Source of the DNA: a virus
Taxonomy: Duplodnaviria; Heunggongvirae; Uroviricota; Caudoviricetes
Virus record (IMG/VR): IMGVR_UViG_2526164633_000018
Span: 1-13,238 of that record
DNA length: 13,238 nt
Strand: one strand, 5' to 3'
Shown one piece after another: positions 323 through 10,762 of this stretch; within the stretch, counting starts at the first letter, position 1, and every line of letters starts with the position of its first letter. The position numbers and the translations under genes were made by a program. The notes beneath the pieces are model-generated. The model worked only from the letters and a program-made list of their open reading frames with translations. It had not been told where the DNA came from and made no database searches.

Positions 323-344
323 AAGCACGGTGTTCGGGGGTTTT

Positions 345-1493
345 ATGAGCAGCAAGCTTCATGGTCTTGTCTGGGAAGGGTGCGCCTTCACCGGCATGAT
401 CTTATCCAGGGTGGCGGTTATGGCCCGTCTTGCAGACTACAGCAATGACGAGGGCGTGTCATGGCCTGCCATTGAAACTATCCGGCGTCAGATCGGTGCA
501 AGAAGTGAATCCACAGTGAAATCGGCTATTGCAGAACTGGCGAAAGAGGGCTGGCTGACGAAGGAAGAGCGTAAGGTCGGTGGGCGTAATGTAAGCAATA
601 TCTATCGGCTTAATGTGGAAAAACTCGAAGCAGCTGCGGCGGCGGCGCGTGAGTCATATAAACCGAAAAGAAAAATTAGCCCGGCAAAAAATGACCCGTT
701 AACAGTTGACCCGTCAAATATTGACCCCTCAACGGTTGACCCGTCAAATTTTGATGGATCAACTGTTGATAAAAAACTGCCGATTAGGGGGGCGATGATT
801 GACCCCGATCCGTCAGTATTAAAACCTGATCCGTCAGATAAAAGATCTTCTTGTCCGGACGCTTCGCAACCGGACCCGCAGACGGCTGAACAGGATTTTT
901 TAACCCGACACCCTGACGCGGTTGTGTTCAGTGCGAAAAAACGCCAGTGGGGAAGTCAGGAAGATTTGGTGTGCGCACAGTGGATCTGGGGACGAATCGT
1001 GAGTCTTTACGAGCAGGCGGCCAGCGATGATGGCGAGATCACTAGACCGAAAGAACCCAACTGGACAGCATGGGCCAATGACGTTCGCACAATGCGGATG
1101 CTGGATGGCAGAACTCACAGACAAATTTGTGAAATGTTTGGGCGTCTCCAGCGGGATTCGTTCTGGGTAAAAAACATCATGAGTCCGGCAAAACTCCGGG
1201 AAAAATGGGATGAACTGGTTATCCGCCTGGGGCGTTCGCCTGCGCAGCGTTGCGTGAATCACATTTCTGAACCGGACACTGAAATACCGCCGGGATTCGA
1301 GGGGGTGACGTGTCATGAAAAACATTGCGGCAGGTTGGGGTTCTTGAACGTATTCGCAGACTTGCACCGACAGGGGTCGCTCCACCGTACCGGACGGTGG
1401 AGGAGTGGCGGGAATGGCAACTTGCTGAAGGACGAAAACGCAGCGAGGAGATTAACCGCCAGAATCGCCAGTTGCGGGTGGAAAAAATCCTGA
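345..1493 (+). CDS. Replication initiator (O-like): N-terminal HTH domain plus a C-terminal region resembling primosomal protein DnaT
   Basis: ATG at 345 follows a G-rich SD (cggggg, 335-340); the six-frame ORF opens at GTG 330. The N-terminus (ARLADYSNDEGVSWPAIETIRRQIGARSESTVKSAIAELAKEGWL) looks like an HTH. The C-terminal motif SEPDTEIPPGFEG matches my recollection of the DnaT C-terminus (…SEPDSQIPPGFRG). The last ~60 codons (VTCHEKHCGRLG…) are rich in C/H/R/G/W and look like an out-of-frame read-through into the next gene. Confidence 0.7.
   Translation: MSSKLHGLVWEGCAFTGMILSRVAVMARLADYSNDEGVSWPAIETIRRQIGARSESTVKSAIAELAKEGWLTKEERKVGGRNVSNIYRLNVEKLEAAAAAARESYKPKRKISPAKNDPLTVDPSNIDPSTVDPSNFDGSTVDKKLPIRGAMIDPDPSVLKPDPSDKRSSCPDASQPDPQTAEQDFLTRHPDAVVFSAKKRQWGSQEDLVCAQWIWGRIVSLYEQAASDDGEITRPKEPNWTAWANDVRTMRMLDGRTHRQICEMFGRLQRDSFWVKNIMSPAKLREKWDELVIRLGRSPAQRCVNHISEPDTEIPPGFEGVTCHEKHCGRLGFLNVFADLHRQGSLHRTGRWRSGGNGNLLKDENAARRLTARIASCGWKKS
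692..766 (+). repeat. Iteron array inside the initiator gene: five tandem 15-bp repeats (TGACCCGTCAANNNT consensus), putative origin of replication
   Basis: Direct repeats tgacccgttaacagt / tgacccgtcaaatat / tgacccctcaacggt / tgacccgtcaaattt / tgatggatcaactgt, each with an internal TGAC..GTCA dyad. An A-rich stretch (tgataaaaaactg) and two gatccgtcag repeats follow at 767-830. At protein level this encodes the (V/I)DPS(N/T) repeat. Lambda's ori lies inside O in the same way. Confidence 0.55.
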
Positions 1494-2062
1494 ATCGTTC
1501 GGGCATCCAGCCTCTGCACAGCAAATGCTCGTTTGCAAATTATCAGGTGCAGAACGACGGGCAAAAATACGCGCTGAGCCAGGCCAAATCCATAGCTGAC
1601 GAACTGATGACCGGGTGCACGAATTTTGTGTTCAGCGGTAAAACCGGCACCGGGAAAAATCACCTTGCAGCGGCGATGGGCAACCGGCTGATGGTGAAGG
1701 GGCGCAGCGTGATTATCGTCACCGTGTCTGACGTCATGAGCGTGTTGCATGACAGCTACGACAACGGCAAATCCGGGGAAAAATTTTTACAGGAGCTTTG
1801 CGGGGTTGATTTGCTGGTCCTGGATGAAATAGGCGTTCAGCGGGAGACGAAAAACGAGCAGGTGGTATTGCACCAGATAATTGATCGCCGGACAGCATCA
1901 CTGTGCAGTGTCGGGATGTTAACAAACCTGAATCATGCCGCAATGAGTACGCTTCTTGGTGAGAGGATTATGGACCGCATGACCATGAACGGTGGTCGAT
2001 GGGTGACGTTTAACTGGGATAGCTGGCGTCCAAATGTCAGCAATATGAGGGTTGTGAAGTAA
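1325..2062 (+). CDS. DnaC-like helicase loader (AAA+ ATPase, IstB/DnaC family); start uncertain and N-terminus apparently frame-disrupted
   Basis: Collinear similarity to E. coli DnaC as I recall it: Walker A FSGKTGTGKNHLAAA, Walker B LLVLDEIG, C-terminal WVTFNWDSWR. The six-frame ORF opens with TTG at 1325 with no SD. A well-placed ATG at 1315 (SD gaggggg 1299-1305) encodes MKNIAAGWGS then stops, in a different frame. Stop TAA at 2060-2062. Confidence 0.75.
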   Translation: MRQVGVLERIRRLAPTGVAPPYRTVEEWREWQLAEGRKRSEEINRQNRQLRVEKILNRSGIQPLHSKCSFANYQVQNDGQKYALSQAKSIADELMTGCTNFVFSGKTGTGKNHLAAAMGNRLMVKGRSVIIVTVSDVMSVLHDSYDNGKSGEKFLQELCGVDLLVLDEIGVQRETKNEQVVLHQIIDRRTASLCSVGMLTNLNHAAMSTLLGERIMDRMTMNGGRWVTFNWDSWRPNVSNMRVVK

Positions 2063-2853: not shown

Positions 2854-2868
2854 TTGCCGGAGGCGCTT

Positions 2869-3291
2869 ATGGCAAAAGTATTTACACAAGAAGAGCGGGA
2901 AAAAATTAAAGGGCAGGTTGTTGAGCTAGTACGCCGGAGTGGGCGCGAGACGTTACGGCAACTGGAAGCCAAGACAGGTGCGACAAGATATCTGATGAGT
3001 GTTCTCGCCAGAGAGCTGGTTGCCAGTGGCGATGTATACAACTCTGGTTACGGGTTATTCCCGTCTGAACAGGCGCGTAAGGACTGGCAAAACGCCCGCA
3101 AAAAACTCTCAAGGGCAAATCTGAAGAAACCATCTGTGGTTGATCCTGACCTTATCTGGCCATTACCAGACGGAGAAATACGCCGCTACGACAGGCGTCA
3201 AAACATAATCTGTAGCGAGTGCCGGAAGAGCGAAGCTATGCAGCGTGTACTGGCTTTCTATCAGGGTAATTTTCAGAAGGTGCTGTTGTGA
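2869..3291 (+). CDS. Hypothetical protein (140 aa) with an N-terminal winged-helix-like region and a C-terminal Cys-containing segment
   Basis: ATG at 2869 follows SD GGAGG (2859-2863); the six-frame ORF opens 5 codons earlier at 2854. Motif LRQLEAKTGATRYLMSVLARELVASG. Stop TGA at 3289-3291. Confidence 0.55.
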   Translation: MAKVFTQEEREKIKGQVVELVRRSGRETLRQLEAKTGATRYLMSVLARELVASGDVYNSGYGLFPSEQARKDWQNARKKLSRANLKKPSVVDPDLIWPLPDGEIRRYDRRQNIICSECRKSEAMQRVLAFYQGNFQKVLL

Positions 3292-6385: not shown

Positions 6386-6490
6386 ATGTCGGATGATATA
6401 TCACTGGCAATGGAAGGTGCGCTGGCTGTTGTTGCTGTTGTGGGTGTTTACTGCCTGGTTGTGTTTTTGATGGAGCGCCTGGGGAACTGA
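6386..6490 (+). CDS. Possible micro-ORF encoding a 34-aa hydrophobic peptide
   Basis: Strong SD aaggaggg (6375-6382) before ATG 6386. Peptide MSDDISLAMEGALAVVAVVGVYCLVVFLMERLGN has an acidic N-terminus and a TM-like core. Confidence 0.4.
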   Translation: MSDDISLAMEGALAVVAVVGVYCLVVFLMERLGN

Positions 6491-6531
6491 ATTCATTCCG
6501 TATGGGAATTCCCATATCGGGTAAAAACGGT

Positions 6532-6559
6532 TTGCGGTAAAGCGAGAGTTAAGTAGAAT
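6532..6559 (+). promoter_or_regulatory. Putative sigma70 promoter of the hok mRNA
   Basis: -35 TTGCGG (6532-6537), 16-bp spacer, -10 TAGAAT (6554-6559). The predicted 5' leader begins …gcttgaggctatctgcctcagg, which resembles the conserved hok mRNA 5' element as I recall it. Confidence 0.45.
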
Positions 6560-6619
6560 TGCTGCGGGTGCTTGAGGCTATCTGCCTCAGGCATGAACAC
6601 CAAAAGGCAGATAGAGAAA

Positions 6620-6690
6620 AGCCCCAGTTAACATTACGCGTCCTGCAAGACGCTTAACATTAATCTGAGGCCCAATCTATGTCTCACAAA
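6620..6690 (-). ncRNA. sok: Putative Sok-like antisense RNA; boundaries approximate
   Basis: On the minus strand there is a promoter-like -35 TTGCCT (complement of 6717-6722), 17-bp spacer and -10 TAACCT (complement of 6694-6699). The transcript would be antisense to the upstream ATG at 6679 and its SD. Inferred from hok/sok locus organisation; ends not determined. Confidence 0.3.
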
Positions 6691-6735
6691 TGTAGGTTAG
6701 CCTCTTACGTGCCGAAAGGCAAGGAGAAGCAGGCT

Positions 6736-6891
6736 ATGAAGCAGCAAAAGGCGATGTTAATCGCCCTGATCGTCATCTGTTTAACCGTCATAGTGACGGC
6801 ACTGGTAACGAGGAAAGACCTCTGCGAGGTACGAATCCGAACCGGCCAGACGGAGGTCGCTGTCTTCACAGCTTACGAACCTGAGGAGTAA
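6736..6891 (+). CDS. hokD: Hok/Gef-family type I toxin (51 aa), HokD/RelF-like
   Basis: Translation MKQQKAMLIALIVICLTVIVTALVTRKDLCEVRIRTGQTEVAVFTAYEPEE matches the Hok family (TM helix plus the conserved periplasmic tail) and, from memory, HokD/RelF specifically. SD aaggagaag lies upstream. The six-frame ORF opens at an upstream in-frame ATG (6679). Confidence 0.85.
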   Translation: MKQQKAMLIALIVICLTVIVTALVTRKDLCEVRIRTGQTEVAVFTAYEPEE

Positions 6892-6958
6892 GAGACCAGG
6901 CGGGGGAGAATCCCTCGCCACCTCTGATGTGTCAGGCATCCTCAACGCACCCGCACTT

Positions 6959-6985
6959 AACCCGCTTCGGCGGGTTTTGTTTTTT
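6959..6985 (+). terminator. Rho-independent terminator ending the hok transcript
   Basis: Stem aacccgc / gcgggtt with loop ttcg, followed by ttttgtttttt. Confidence 0.6.
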
Positions 6986-7057
6986 CCTAGCATTCTGGTT
7001 TACAATTCGCACGCCAGCCTGAACAACTGGCACCTGCTGCGCCAGCAGAGACAACCG

Positions 7058-7337: not shown

Positions 7338-8387
7338 GTGCGGGTATTACTTCGACCTGTTCTGGTACCGGAACTCGGGCTGGTGATCGTTAAGCCGGGC
7401 CGTGAATCCATGCCGGTATTCCACAATACCCGGGTACTGGTGGAGCCGGAACCGAAAAGCATGCGTAATCTGCCGTCCGGGGTTGTTCCTGCCGTTCACC
7501 AGCCGCTAGTGGAAGACAAAACATTGCTGCCGTTTTTCAGTAACGCACGGGTGATTCGTGCTGCTGGTGGTGCTGGTGCATTGTCTGACTGGCTGTTGCG
7601 CCATATTAAATCCTGCCAGTGGCCACACGGCGATTATCATCACAGCGAAACCGTCATTCACCGTTATGGTACCGGCGCAATGGTGTTGTGCTGGCACTGC
7701 GACAACCAGCTGCGTGACCAGACATCCGAATCACTCGGGCAACTTGCTCACCAAAATTTGTCAGCATGGATGATTGACGTCATACGCCATGCAATGAATG
7801 GCACGCAGGAGCGGGAATTATCTCTGGGTGAATTATCCTGGTGGGCGGTCTGCAATCAGGTGGCGGACGCGCTTCCGGAGGCAGTATTACGTCGTTCTCT
7901 GGGGTTACGTGCGGAAAAAATCCGCCCCTTGTACCGCGAAAGCGACATCGTACCGGGAGAGCAGACCGCCATCAGCATACTGAAACAGCGCACAAAAAAT
8001 CTTGCGCCGCTGCCTCACGCCCACCAGCAACAGAACCCACCACAGGAAAAGACGGTGGTCAGCATTGCCGTTGATCCTGAGCCTCCGGAATCTTTCATGA
8101 AACGACCTAAACGTCGCCGCTGGGTTAACGAGAAATACACACGCTGGGTGAAGACTCAGCCGTGTGCGTGTTGTGGTAAGCCAGCCGACGATCCCCATCA
8201 CCTGATTGGTCATGGTCAGGGCGGAATGGGGACAAAATCTCACGATATTTTCACGCTACCGCTGTGTCGGGAGCATCACAACGAGCTTCATGCGGATCCG
8301 CTGGCGTTCGAAGAAAAGCATGGCTCTCAGGTTGATTTAATTTTTCGTTTTCTTGATCACGCCTTTGCAACTGGCGTGCTTGGGTAA
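7338..8387 (+). CDS. DUF968-type phage protein (YdfU-like, 349 aa) with a C-terminal HNH-like Cys/His motif
   Basis: GTG 7338 follows SD GGAGG (7330-7334). C-terminus …WVKTQPCACCGKPADDPHHLIGHGQGGMGTKSHDIFTLPLCREHHNELH has HNH-type spacing of Cys/His ligands. Position between hok and rusA/Q matches Qin-like synteny. Confidence 0.7.
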   Translation: MRVLLRPVLVPELGLVIVKPGRESMPVFHNTRVLVEPEPKSMRNLPSGVVPAVHQPLVEDKTLLPFFSNARVIRAAGGAGALSDWLLRHIKSCQWPHGDYHHSETVIHRYGTGAMVLCWHCDNQLRDQTSESLGQLAHQNLSAWMIDVIRHAMNGTQERELSLGELSWWAVCNQVADALPEAVLRRSLGLRAEKIRPLYRESDIVPGEQTAISILKQRTKNLAPLPHAHQQQNPPQEKTVVSIAVDPEPPESFMKRPKRRRWVNEKYTRWVKTQPCACCGKPADDPHHLIGHGQGGMGTKSHDIFTLPLCREHHNELHADPLAFEEKHGSQVDLIFRFLDHAFATGVLG

Positions 8388-8399
8388 AAGAGGTGACTG

Positions 8400-8774
8400 A
8401 TGCTCATAGATTTGGTTTTACCTTACCCGCCAACGGTGAACACCTACTGGCGACGTCGTGGCAGCACATATTTTATCTCGGAGGAGGGAAAGCGTTATCG
8501 CCGGGCTGTGGCGCTTATTGTTCGCCAGCAGCGGCTGAAATTAATCCTGTCCGGAAGGCTGGCGATAAAGGTGATTGCAGAGCCACCGGATAAGCGTCGT
8601 CGCGACCTGGACAATATCCTGAAAGCACCGCTGGATGCGCTGACGCATGCGGGAGTGTTAATGGACGATGAGCAGTTTGATGAAATCAATATCGTTCGTG
8701 GTCAGCCAGTATCTGGTGGACGTCTGGGGGTGAAGATTTACCCCATAATGCTTGAAGGGCAGGTCAAAAAATGA
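8400..8774 (+). CDS. rusA: RusA-family Holliday-junction resolvase (124 aa)
   Basis: ATG 8400 follows SD agaggtg. Motif PDKRRRDLDNILKAPLDALTHAGVLMDDEQ matches the RusA catalytic region (recalled E. coli RusA …PDRRRRDLDNLQKA…). Stop overlaps the next gene start (ATGA at 8771-8774). Confidence 0.85.
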   Translation: MLIDLVLPYPPTVNTYWRRRGSTYFISEEGKRYRRAVALIVRQQRLKLILSGRLAIKVIAEPPDKRRRDLDNILKAPLDALTHAGVLMDDEQFDEINIVRGQPVSGGRLGVKIYPIMLEGQVKK

Positions 8775-9592
8775 AACTGGAAGATTTACCGAAATACTAC
8801 TCCCCAAAATCCCTCGGCCTGACTGATGCATCGGCCTCAACGTCGAAAGATACGCTGAGTATCACTGATGTGATGGCCGCGCAGGGCATGACACAGAATT
8901 GGGCTGAGATGGGGTTTTCTGCGTTCCTTGGGAAAATGGGCATTAGTATGAATGACAGAGAGCGGGCAACAGAATTGCTGACAGAATATGCACTCAGTCG
9001 GTGTGATCGCGTGGCGGCGTTAAGAAAACTCCCGGCAGAAATAAAACCGGCAGTGATGCGTATTATGGCTTCGTATGCGTTTGAAGATTATGCCCGTAGC
9101 GCGGCGAGCAAAAAACAGTGCCCCTGTTGTCACGGAAAAAAATTTATTGAAAGCGAGGTTTTTACAAACAAGATCCAGTATCCGGATGGTAAGCCGCCAG
9201 TGTGGGCAAAGTGCACAAAAGGAGTGTATCCGTCTTACTGGGAGGAATGGAAAAAAGTCAGGGAGGTGGTAAAAGTTGCCTGTCCGGAGTGTGGAGGGAA
9301 GGGAGAGGTATCCACTGCCTGTAAAGATTGTCGTGGGCGCGGTGTTGCCATTCATCGTGAAGAGTCGGTAAAACGTGGTATGCCTGTTATCAGAGACTGC
9401 CAGCGTTGTGGTGGTCGTGGCTATGAAAGATTACCTTCAACGGAGGCATTTAATGCCATATGTAATGTAACCGATGCCATATCTCTTGATACATGGAAAA
9501 AAACAGTTAAACGTTTTTACGATACGCTGGTGGTGCAGTTTGATATTGAAGAAGCATGGGCAGAACAACAACTGAAAAAGGTGACCAGATAG
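8771..9592 (+). CDS. Lambda-type late antiterminator Q (273 aa), longer than lambda Q
   Basis: Collinear with lambda Q as I recall it: SPKS…TDVMAA.GM…YA(F/Y)(E/A)DY.RSAA…Cys-rich zinc motifs…(F/L)YD.LVVQ…VTR at the C-terminus. It is followed immediately by a lambda PR'-like sequence. Confidence 0.85.
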   Translation: MKLEDLPKYYSPKSLGLTDASASTSKDTLSITDVMAAQGMTQNWAEMGFSAFLGKMGISMNDRERATELLTEYALSRCDRVAALRKLPAEIKPAVMRIMASYAFEDYARSAASKKQCPCCHGKKFIESEVFTNKIQYPDGKPPVWAKCTKGVYPSYWEEWKKVREVVKVACPECGGKGEVSTACKDCRGRGVAIHREESVKRGMPVIRDCQRCGGRGYERLPSTEAFNAICNVTDAISLDTWKKTVKRFYDTLVVQFDIEEAWAEQQLKKVTR

Positions 9593-10320: not shown

Positions 10321-10516
10321 CCGGTGATAAAAAGAAACAGCCTGCATAATGCTTGATTTTTTTATTTGCTGTTTATTAAAAATACTACTGCATGGTGAAT
10401 CCCCCTGTGCGGAGGGGCAATCAGCAAGTAGGTATATGTGATAATCGCGGATTCAGGTGCTGATACTGAATTCACCGGGAGGCACCCGGCACCATGCAAG
10501 AAAAAGAATGTGCATG

Positions 10517-10548
10517 CAAAAATGCCCCTCTCCGGAGGGGCATTTTTT
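10517..10548 (+). terminator. Strong rho-independent terminator, potentially bidirectional
   Basis: A-tract caaaaat, then 7-bp stem gcccctc / gaggggc with loop tccg, then atttttt. A second hairpin (gcccgaa-tggg-ttcgggc, 10562-10579) preceded by taaaaaa follows and is oriented for the minus strand. Confidence 0.6.
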
Positions 10549-10762
10549 ATGGGTAAAAAATGCCCGAATGGGTTCGGGCAATAGCATGAGATACTGATAT
10601 TGTTGTGTTGTTATCGTGTGGATTTTAACCAGGGTTTATCAGGCTGCGCAACTGCGTGGCCTTCTTCATTTCTTGGGCTGTAGTCCCCGTGTGTCATTCA
10701 GGCTTCCGGACTACAGCCCACTCCATATCTGATTTAATACACTATCCCGGCCGGGAGGAATA

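Follow-up and report, generated by a model that had tools for sequence, protein, structure and literature searches.

The window, by which is meant the whole 13,238-nt stretch of DNA analyzed here, carries between positions 6531 and 6985 what is very probably an intact, uninterrupted hok/mok/sok type I toxin-antitoxin cassette, an allele of the hokW/mokW/sokW locus of Shiga-toxin phages that is situated in the nin region of a lambdoid E. coli prophage and would act in the manner indicated by its homology to R1 hok/sok and hokW-sokW (Table 1). An earlier note on this DNA had described a complete hok/sok-type locus free of IS interruption, and this description stands: the toxin ORF, leader, terminator, promoters and antisense gene all lie at or close to the places it had assigned to them, and the locus aligns with that of phage 933W without insertion. 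The locus is already known, having been annotated in 933W in 1999 and characterized in Sp5 in 2021, and it is present in most complete E. coli genomes; at least 80% of a 501-nt query (window 6500-7000) was found in 3857 of 5426 of these, mostly at 95-99% identity.

Table 1. Features of the hok/mok/sok locus and of the neighboring phage genes, in window coordinates.
Feature	Position	Strand	Details or basis
O-like initiator	330-1493	+	PHROG search
DnaC-like loader	1325-2062	+	PHROG search
Ren	2854-3291	+	PHROG search
hok promoter	6531-6559	+	-35-like TTTGCG (6531-6536), or TTGCGG one base on; -10 TAGAAT (6554-6559)
hok mRNA	6566-6985	+	ca. 420 nt; 5' end by inference, 3' end at terminator
5'-terminal tac region	6566-6577	+	predicted pairing with fbi; invariant in 69 loci
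Sok antisense RNA	6617-6687	-	71 nt (6687 to 6617); coordinates transferred from annotated sokW of 933W
mok Shine-Dalgarno GAGG	6667-6670	+	8 nt 5' of ATG 6679; invariant in related loci
Hypervariable patch	6672-6693		22 nt, from the spacer between mok SD and ATG through codons 2-5; contains the target of the predicted Sok leader (nt 1-14) and bases just 5' of Sok start
mok ORF	6679-6891	+	70 aa, in frame with hok; predicted product an N-terminally extended Hok
Sok promoter	6694-6722	-	-35 TTGCCT (6722 to 6717), 17-nt spacer, -10 TAACCT (6699 to 6694)
hok Shine-Dalgarno AAGGAG	6721-6726	+	9 nt 5' of hok ATG
hok toxin ORF	6736-6891	+	51 aa; PF01848; identical to E. coli K-12 HokD (RelF)
fbi (fold-back inhibition) element CCUCAACGCACCC	6940-6952	+	predicted pairing with mRNA 5' end; conserved in 933W and K-12 hokD
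Intrinsic terminator of hok mRNA	6959-6985	+	7-bp GC-rich stem, then T run; common to K-12 hokD
HNH/DUF968	7338-8387	+	PHROG search
RusA	8400-8774	+	PHROG search
Q	8771-9592	+	PHROG search

The toxin gene encodes a 51-residue Hok protein (MKQQKAMLIALIVICLTVIVTALVTRKDLCEVRIRTGQTEVAVFTAYEPEE) that matches the Pfam family PF01848 (HOK_GEF) at 82.9 bits (cutoff 22; E = 1.2e-23), and this exact sequence is held under HOKD_ECOLI in UniRef and is annotated as hokD by PGAP. The hok Shine-Dalgarno sequence sits inside a conserved motif, CAAGGAGAA, that is common to R1, hokB, hokC and the window locus. As the earlier note had pointed out, an upstream ATG at 6679, served by the Shine-Dalgarno sequence GAGG, is in frame with hok: the two start codons are 57 nt apart, and the reading frame is open through to the hok stop (6891), giving an ORF of 70 codons. 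This frame, mok, reads across both the hok Shine-Dalgarno sequence and the hok start, and in alignments its start codon coincides with that of mok in R1-type loci and with those of mokC and mokW. The exact 70-residue Mok sequence occurs on at least 999 contigs, where it goes by the names Hok family toxin or regulatory protein.

The leader (6566-6741) matches the Rfam model RF01794 over model positions 1-157 of 157, with a score of 121.7 bits (gathering threshold 59; E = 6.5e-28). The match begins at 6566, and the mRNA 5' sequence placed there, GGGUGCUUGAGGC, aligns with the leaders of R1, hokC and hokB. The full-length hok mRNA (6566-6984) has a calculated minimum free energy of -172 kcal/mol (z = -8.25 versus shuffles), and in this predicted fold nucleotides 1-12 of the mRNA would pair with 6940-6952, with a one-base bulge, to close the 5' end onto the 3' end; the names of the tac and fbi elements, and the fbi closure as a typical property of hok mRNAs, are those of the literature (PMC3851714). 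For Sok, the predicted fold (-29.2 kcal/mol, z = -5.3) leaves the first 14 nt single-stranded as a 5' leader, which is followed by a long hairpin and a U tail.

The hok-type promoter and the candidate antisense promoter of the earlier note are both present as judged by homology and conservation, but both fall below the threshold of a consensus scan: a consensus sigma-70 promoter search returned no site at threshold on either strand, and it is therefore homology and conservation from which the two promoters are called here. The hok promoter elements of the window are those of 933W, and among 69 distinct loci that encode an identical Hok the -10 element is invariant and the -35 element nearly so, within a flank that is variable. 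The hok promoter of R1 is weak, and a sub-threshold hok promoter in the window fits with this. The Sok promoter, in turn, has the same sequence as that of sokW in 933W/Sp5 and belongs to a segment that is almost invariant across loci; in the promoter-less sokW construct of Takada et al. (PMC8621323), the mutagenic primer replaces exactly this -10 element, and antidote activity is lost. The length of about 65 nt that had been anticipated for the antisense RNA gives way to 71 nt (6687 to 6617) by homology to sokW, which in 933W overlaps the mokW start by 9 nt. The Northern probes of Takada et al. (PMC8621323) match the window outside the variable patch that is described below.

Within the prophage, hok lies between the replication genes and RusA/Q, and is co-oriented with the early-right operon. 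In a record that is 100% identical, the locus is found in a lambdoid prophage with small nin-type genes on one side and DUF968, RusA and Q on the other. Because of the shared orientation, the convergent Sok promoter could suffer interference from early-right read-through on induction. Directly 5' of the hok promoter there is a small hydrophobic ORF of 34 residues (MSDDISLAMEGALAVVAVVGVYCLVVFLMERLGN; window 6386-6490, + strand), which the identical E. coli record lists as a hypothetical protein and for which the PHROG search found no match. Two small RNAs were also identified by Rfam 3' of Q, namely STnc100 (146 bits; window 10364-10554, + strand) and the anti-GcvB sRNA AgvB (96.5 bits; window 10616-10555, - strand), the latter abutting STnc100 on the other strand.

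Compared with hokW/mokW/sokW of the Stx2 phages 933W and Sp5 (AF125520), the window locus shows 94% DNA identity. In the 933W annotation, mokW (70 residues) and hokW (51 residues) run to one stop from start codons separated by 57 nt, and sokW measures 71 nt, and the same lengths are found in the window; the hok and Sok promoter elements, the Shine-Dalgarno sequences, tac and fbi are identical between the two, and 63 of the 70 residues of MokW are identical to those of the window ORF. The two loci differ at 5 of 14 nucleotides in the patch targeted by the Sok leader and at the Hok C-terminus, which reads FTAYEPEE in the window and FVDYESEK in 933W. They also differ after fbi, where window 6953-6995, like K-12 hokD, forms a canonical terminator hairpin, whereas the 933W sequence (L210 1935-1975) diverges completely and presents no aligned terminator. 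In Sp5, whose locus has the same sequence as that of 933W, the 51-residue HokW is toxic alone and sokW expressed from its own promoter neutralizes it (Takada et al., 2021; PMC8621323). The same study observed both hokW and sokW RNAs on Northern blots of Sp5 lysogens, a contribution of RNase III and Hfq, the disappearance of sokW and appearance of HokW upon RecA-dependent induction, and a halving of phage release on deletion of the locus (PMC8621323). Since in 933W hokW is located elsewhere in the genome, where it adjoins the very large ORF L0134 and is carried on the opposite strand, the role seen in Sp5, that of helping lysis and release, may not transfer to the nin-region copy.

The chromosomal relatives in K-12 place the window locus in its family. 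K-12 hokD (relF), in the cryptic prophage Qin, has a Hok, 3' UTR, fbi and terminator that are essentially identical to those of the window, but the K-12 locus matches window 6715-6985 only, from about 20 nt 5' of the hok ATG, with the promoter, tac, mok start and Sok target and gene being replaced by relBE sequence; the window thus holds the complete form of what is a truncated remnant in K-12. K-12 hokC (gef), which IS186 adjoins, encodes a Hok that is 82% identical, and its leader aligns throughout; mokC and hokC are read in one frame, from start codons separated by 57 nt to a common stop, and the overlap of sokC with the mokC start amounts to 9 nt. The annotated sokC measures 59 nt, whereas in the window the Sok hairpin is lengthened by a 16-nt insertion. 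Plasmid R1 hok/mok/sok (parB) shares the whole architecture of the window locus (leader fold, mok Shine-Dalgarno and start position, Sok promoter within mok, hok Shine-Dalgarno and 5'-3' closure), but R1 Hok is only 39% identical to the window Hok, and the R1 type is found on conjugative IncF plasmids.

The earlier note was right in stating that mok and hok of R1 are in different frames. In the canonical R1-type locus (L009, pAPEC-O2-R), mok starts 58 nt 5' of hok and runs for 70 codons in the +1 frame, stopping 4 nt before the hok stop. The window, with 57 nt and a shared frame, departs from this arrangement and has instead that of mokW and mokC, in which two starts 57 nt apart (6679 and 6736) lead to one stop (6891). 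The canonical locus was picked by means of a leader sequence which we take to be that of R1, and which is 100% identical in the plasmid records listed and at least 99% identical in 2660. A second plasmid locus (L004, IncFII plasmid NZ_CP128973), whose Hok is 100% identical to that of R1, was considered as R1 itself and rejected, as its mok is in frame and the canonical R1 leader has an out-of-frame mok at 58 nt; it is a variant one base shorter. The two plasmid loci (L004 444-659 and L009 516-732) encode the same 52-residue Hok and are set apart by a one-base difference in the mok leader, so that the former has its mok in frame at 57 nt and the latter out of frame at 58 nt. Both layouts also occur in the K-12 annotations, where the mokA pseudogene shares its stop with hokA, and mokB is out of frame, 58 nt 5' of hok.

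Two surveys bear on how common each layout is. Among 80 IMG/VR loci encoding a Hok that is 100% identical to that of the window, 66 have an in-frame ATG at -57, and in 11 a 2-nt deletion together with a 1-nt insertion puts mok at 56 nt and out of frame; the remaining three are without the leader, two of them (L041, L045) being of the truncated, relE-joined Qin type and one having an unrelated leader. In out-of-frame loci of this set (L011, L021, L030, L033, L047, L062, L066, L087), mok comprises just 19 codons, and its UGA and the hok AUG overlap (AUGA), a classic termination-reinitiation layout. The other survey, a DNA scan for the leader motif in one genome per species, and hence limited to loci that keep the exact motif, yielded 69 distinct hok loci. 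In this set the largest class (24 loci) has mok in frame to the hok stop, 23 loci have a long out-of-frame mok of the R1/hokB type and four a short out-of-frame mok, with 13 lacking an ATG at the homologous place and five others. The scan also gave matches in non-enterobacterial MAG contigs (L188, L094, L097, L103, L104, L108); one of these, a 3979-bp Ferruginibacter MAG contig (L188), carries an R1-identical hok/mok and looks like plasmid contamination of the bin, and some of the other non-enterobacterial matches are without a hok ORF and are probably due to chance.

The alignment with R1 and the chromosomal hok loci, which the earlier note had proposed as a check on its suggestion that the in-frame layout is special and points to different regulation, thus shows an in-frame ATG to be typical of hokD-type loci, an outcome that on that note's own terms refutes the novelty of the layout and leaves the suggestion unsupported, because the layout is annotated in 933W and K-12 (mokC/hokC), is the commonest in the surveys, and belongs in hokW-sokW to a conventional type I system. 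The in-frame mok re-identified here is the norm for this branch and is, as such, of little consequence. What the survey makes explicit is that the frame of mok flips between loci that carry the same toxin, in support of a view in which mok matters through its translation only. In the loci with identical Hok, codons 2-5 of mok are moreover hypervariable at the protein level (SHKC, LYTR, LDTC, LNTC, NGKS, TCTC and others). From the frame flips and from this hypervariability, we infer that neither the Mok peptide nor the frame of mok is likely to be under selection, and that only translation through the region would matter. This agrees with the accepted role of mok (PMC4147584; PMC3851714).

It is accordingly improbable that the in-frame loci constitute a functionally different system, in which a 70-residue Mok-Hok fusion is the real or an additional toxin and Sok controls toxin synthesis directly rather than by way of a coupling ORF. 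A ribosome that starts at 6679 must make the 70-residue protein, and the 19-residue extension is basic (MSHKCRLASYVPKGKEKQA), which by the analysis' own reasoning would suit an N-in membrane topology; in-frame loci are also frequent within the hok family, and no published test separating MokW from HokW was found, the C-terminal FLAG tag of PMC8621323 being one that would label both. However, the same Hok is found downstream of an out-of-frame mok, offset by 56 nt and with its stop overlapping the hok AUG, in the 11 loci described above, and in the R1-like plasmid variant a one-base difference switches the frame with the Hok kept; the N-terminal extension shows no conservation at the protein level, and the 51-residue HokW is toxic by itself (PMC8621323).

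A slightly smaller probability still attaches to the proposal that the locus is a silent or decaying relic without current activity, as are hok loci of the K-12 chromosome. There, hokA, hokC and hokE are flanked by IS elements and hokD is without its whole 5' regulatory half, and the promoters of the window are below consensus. An intact hok sequence would in any case be no guarantee of activity, because several chromosomal E. coli loci (hokA, hokB, hokC) are reported not to mediate post-segregational killing (summarized in bioRxiv 10.1101/2025.08.07.668861). Transcription, processing, Sok length and toxicity are all carried over to the window from its homologues. Against decay, the window locus shows no IS, truncation or frameshift, and its promoter elements, Shine-Dalgarno sequences, tac and fbi are those of the experimentally active hokW-sokW. 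The transcribed region is almost invariant over dozens of prophages, save for one patch and a more variable 3' UTR, and the hok mRNA fold is far more stable than those of shuffled sequences.

An intact type I cassette of the hokW-sokW kind would operate as follows. A weak promoter would give rise to a stable hok mRNA of about 420 nt, in which the 5' end, paired to the 3' fbi element, would be shut to ribosomes and to Sok alike, until slow trimming of the 3' end allowed the molecule to refold; shorter hokW RNAs were seen in PMC8621323, with processing and refolding going beyond what that paper showed. Ribosomes initiating at the mok AUG (6679) would then traverse the hok Shine-Dalgarno sequence, a passage that would be needed for the translation of hok. 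The unstable 71-nt Sok RNA, transcribed from its own promoter within mok, would engage the mok initiation region by base pairing of its single-stranded 5' leader, stopping the translation of mok and hence of hok and marking the duplex for RNase III. Once the supply of Sok ended, by induction or loss of the prophage, Hok would be made and the inner membrane depolarized. An in-frame mok is the normal state of this subfamily, and its only effect would be that a ribosome initiating at mok makes a 70-residue extended Hok in place of an overlapping peptide of unrelated sequence.

The most variable part of the locus is the 22-nt patch that the Sok leader would recognize (Table 1). Among 69 distinct loci with identical Hok, the mean pairwise difference in the patch is 31%, as against 7.4% in the upstream 5' UTR, 3.2% in the segment with the Sok promoter and hok Shine-Dalgarno sequence, and 13.7% in the 3' UTR; the hok coding sequence differs by 0.6%, a value to be read in light of the fact that these loci were selected for Hok identity. 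Of the 22 sites in the patch, 13 reach an entropy of 0.8 bit or more, compared with 11 of the 391 sites elsewhere (Fisher p = 7e-13). The variation takes the form of 22 patch alleles in 120 IMG/VR loci, about seven of them common, with that of the window the third most frequent (14 of 120). Between the major alleles, a median of 5 of the 14 leader positions is different, and the predicted leader-target duplexes have energies of -19 to -21.5 kcal/mol for cognate and -1.3 to -13.7 kcal/mol for non-cognate pairs. The pattern suggests, at the level of the sequences compared, a set of discrete antidote-specificity alleles, although Sok outside its leader stays complementary to every patch allele. 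In R1, as the title of Thisted et al. (1994) has it, the Sok leader is the element that recognizes hok mRNA, and a recent survey of Hok states that Sok and mok are outside its analysis (bioRxiv 10.1101/2025.08.07.668861).

Where copies reside in the same genome, seven of eight pairs differ in their patch allele, about 89% being expected to differ by chance. Across 21 patch alleles, a shallow set for this purpose, the mok hairpin had 84% of cells paired and no two-sided compensatory changes, and its covariation, no better than in shuffles, lends the helix no independent support.

Among the leads from this locus, only the hypervariable patch that Sok would target has real potential. It is conceivable, though somewhat short of probable, that its variants are Sok-specificity alleles kept apart by diversifying selection or by allele shuffling, such that each lambdoid prophage carries a private antidote for an otherwise identical toxin. 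The window would then carry one of about seven common specificity alleles, and a resident prophage would be unable, through its Sok, to protect cells against the hok mRNA of a second prophage after the loss or induction of the latter. If the patch does set specificity, it would account for the coexistence, in a single cell, of several prophages whose Hok toxins are identical, with no cross-protection between them.
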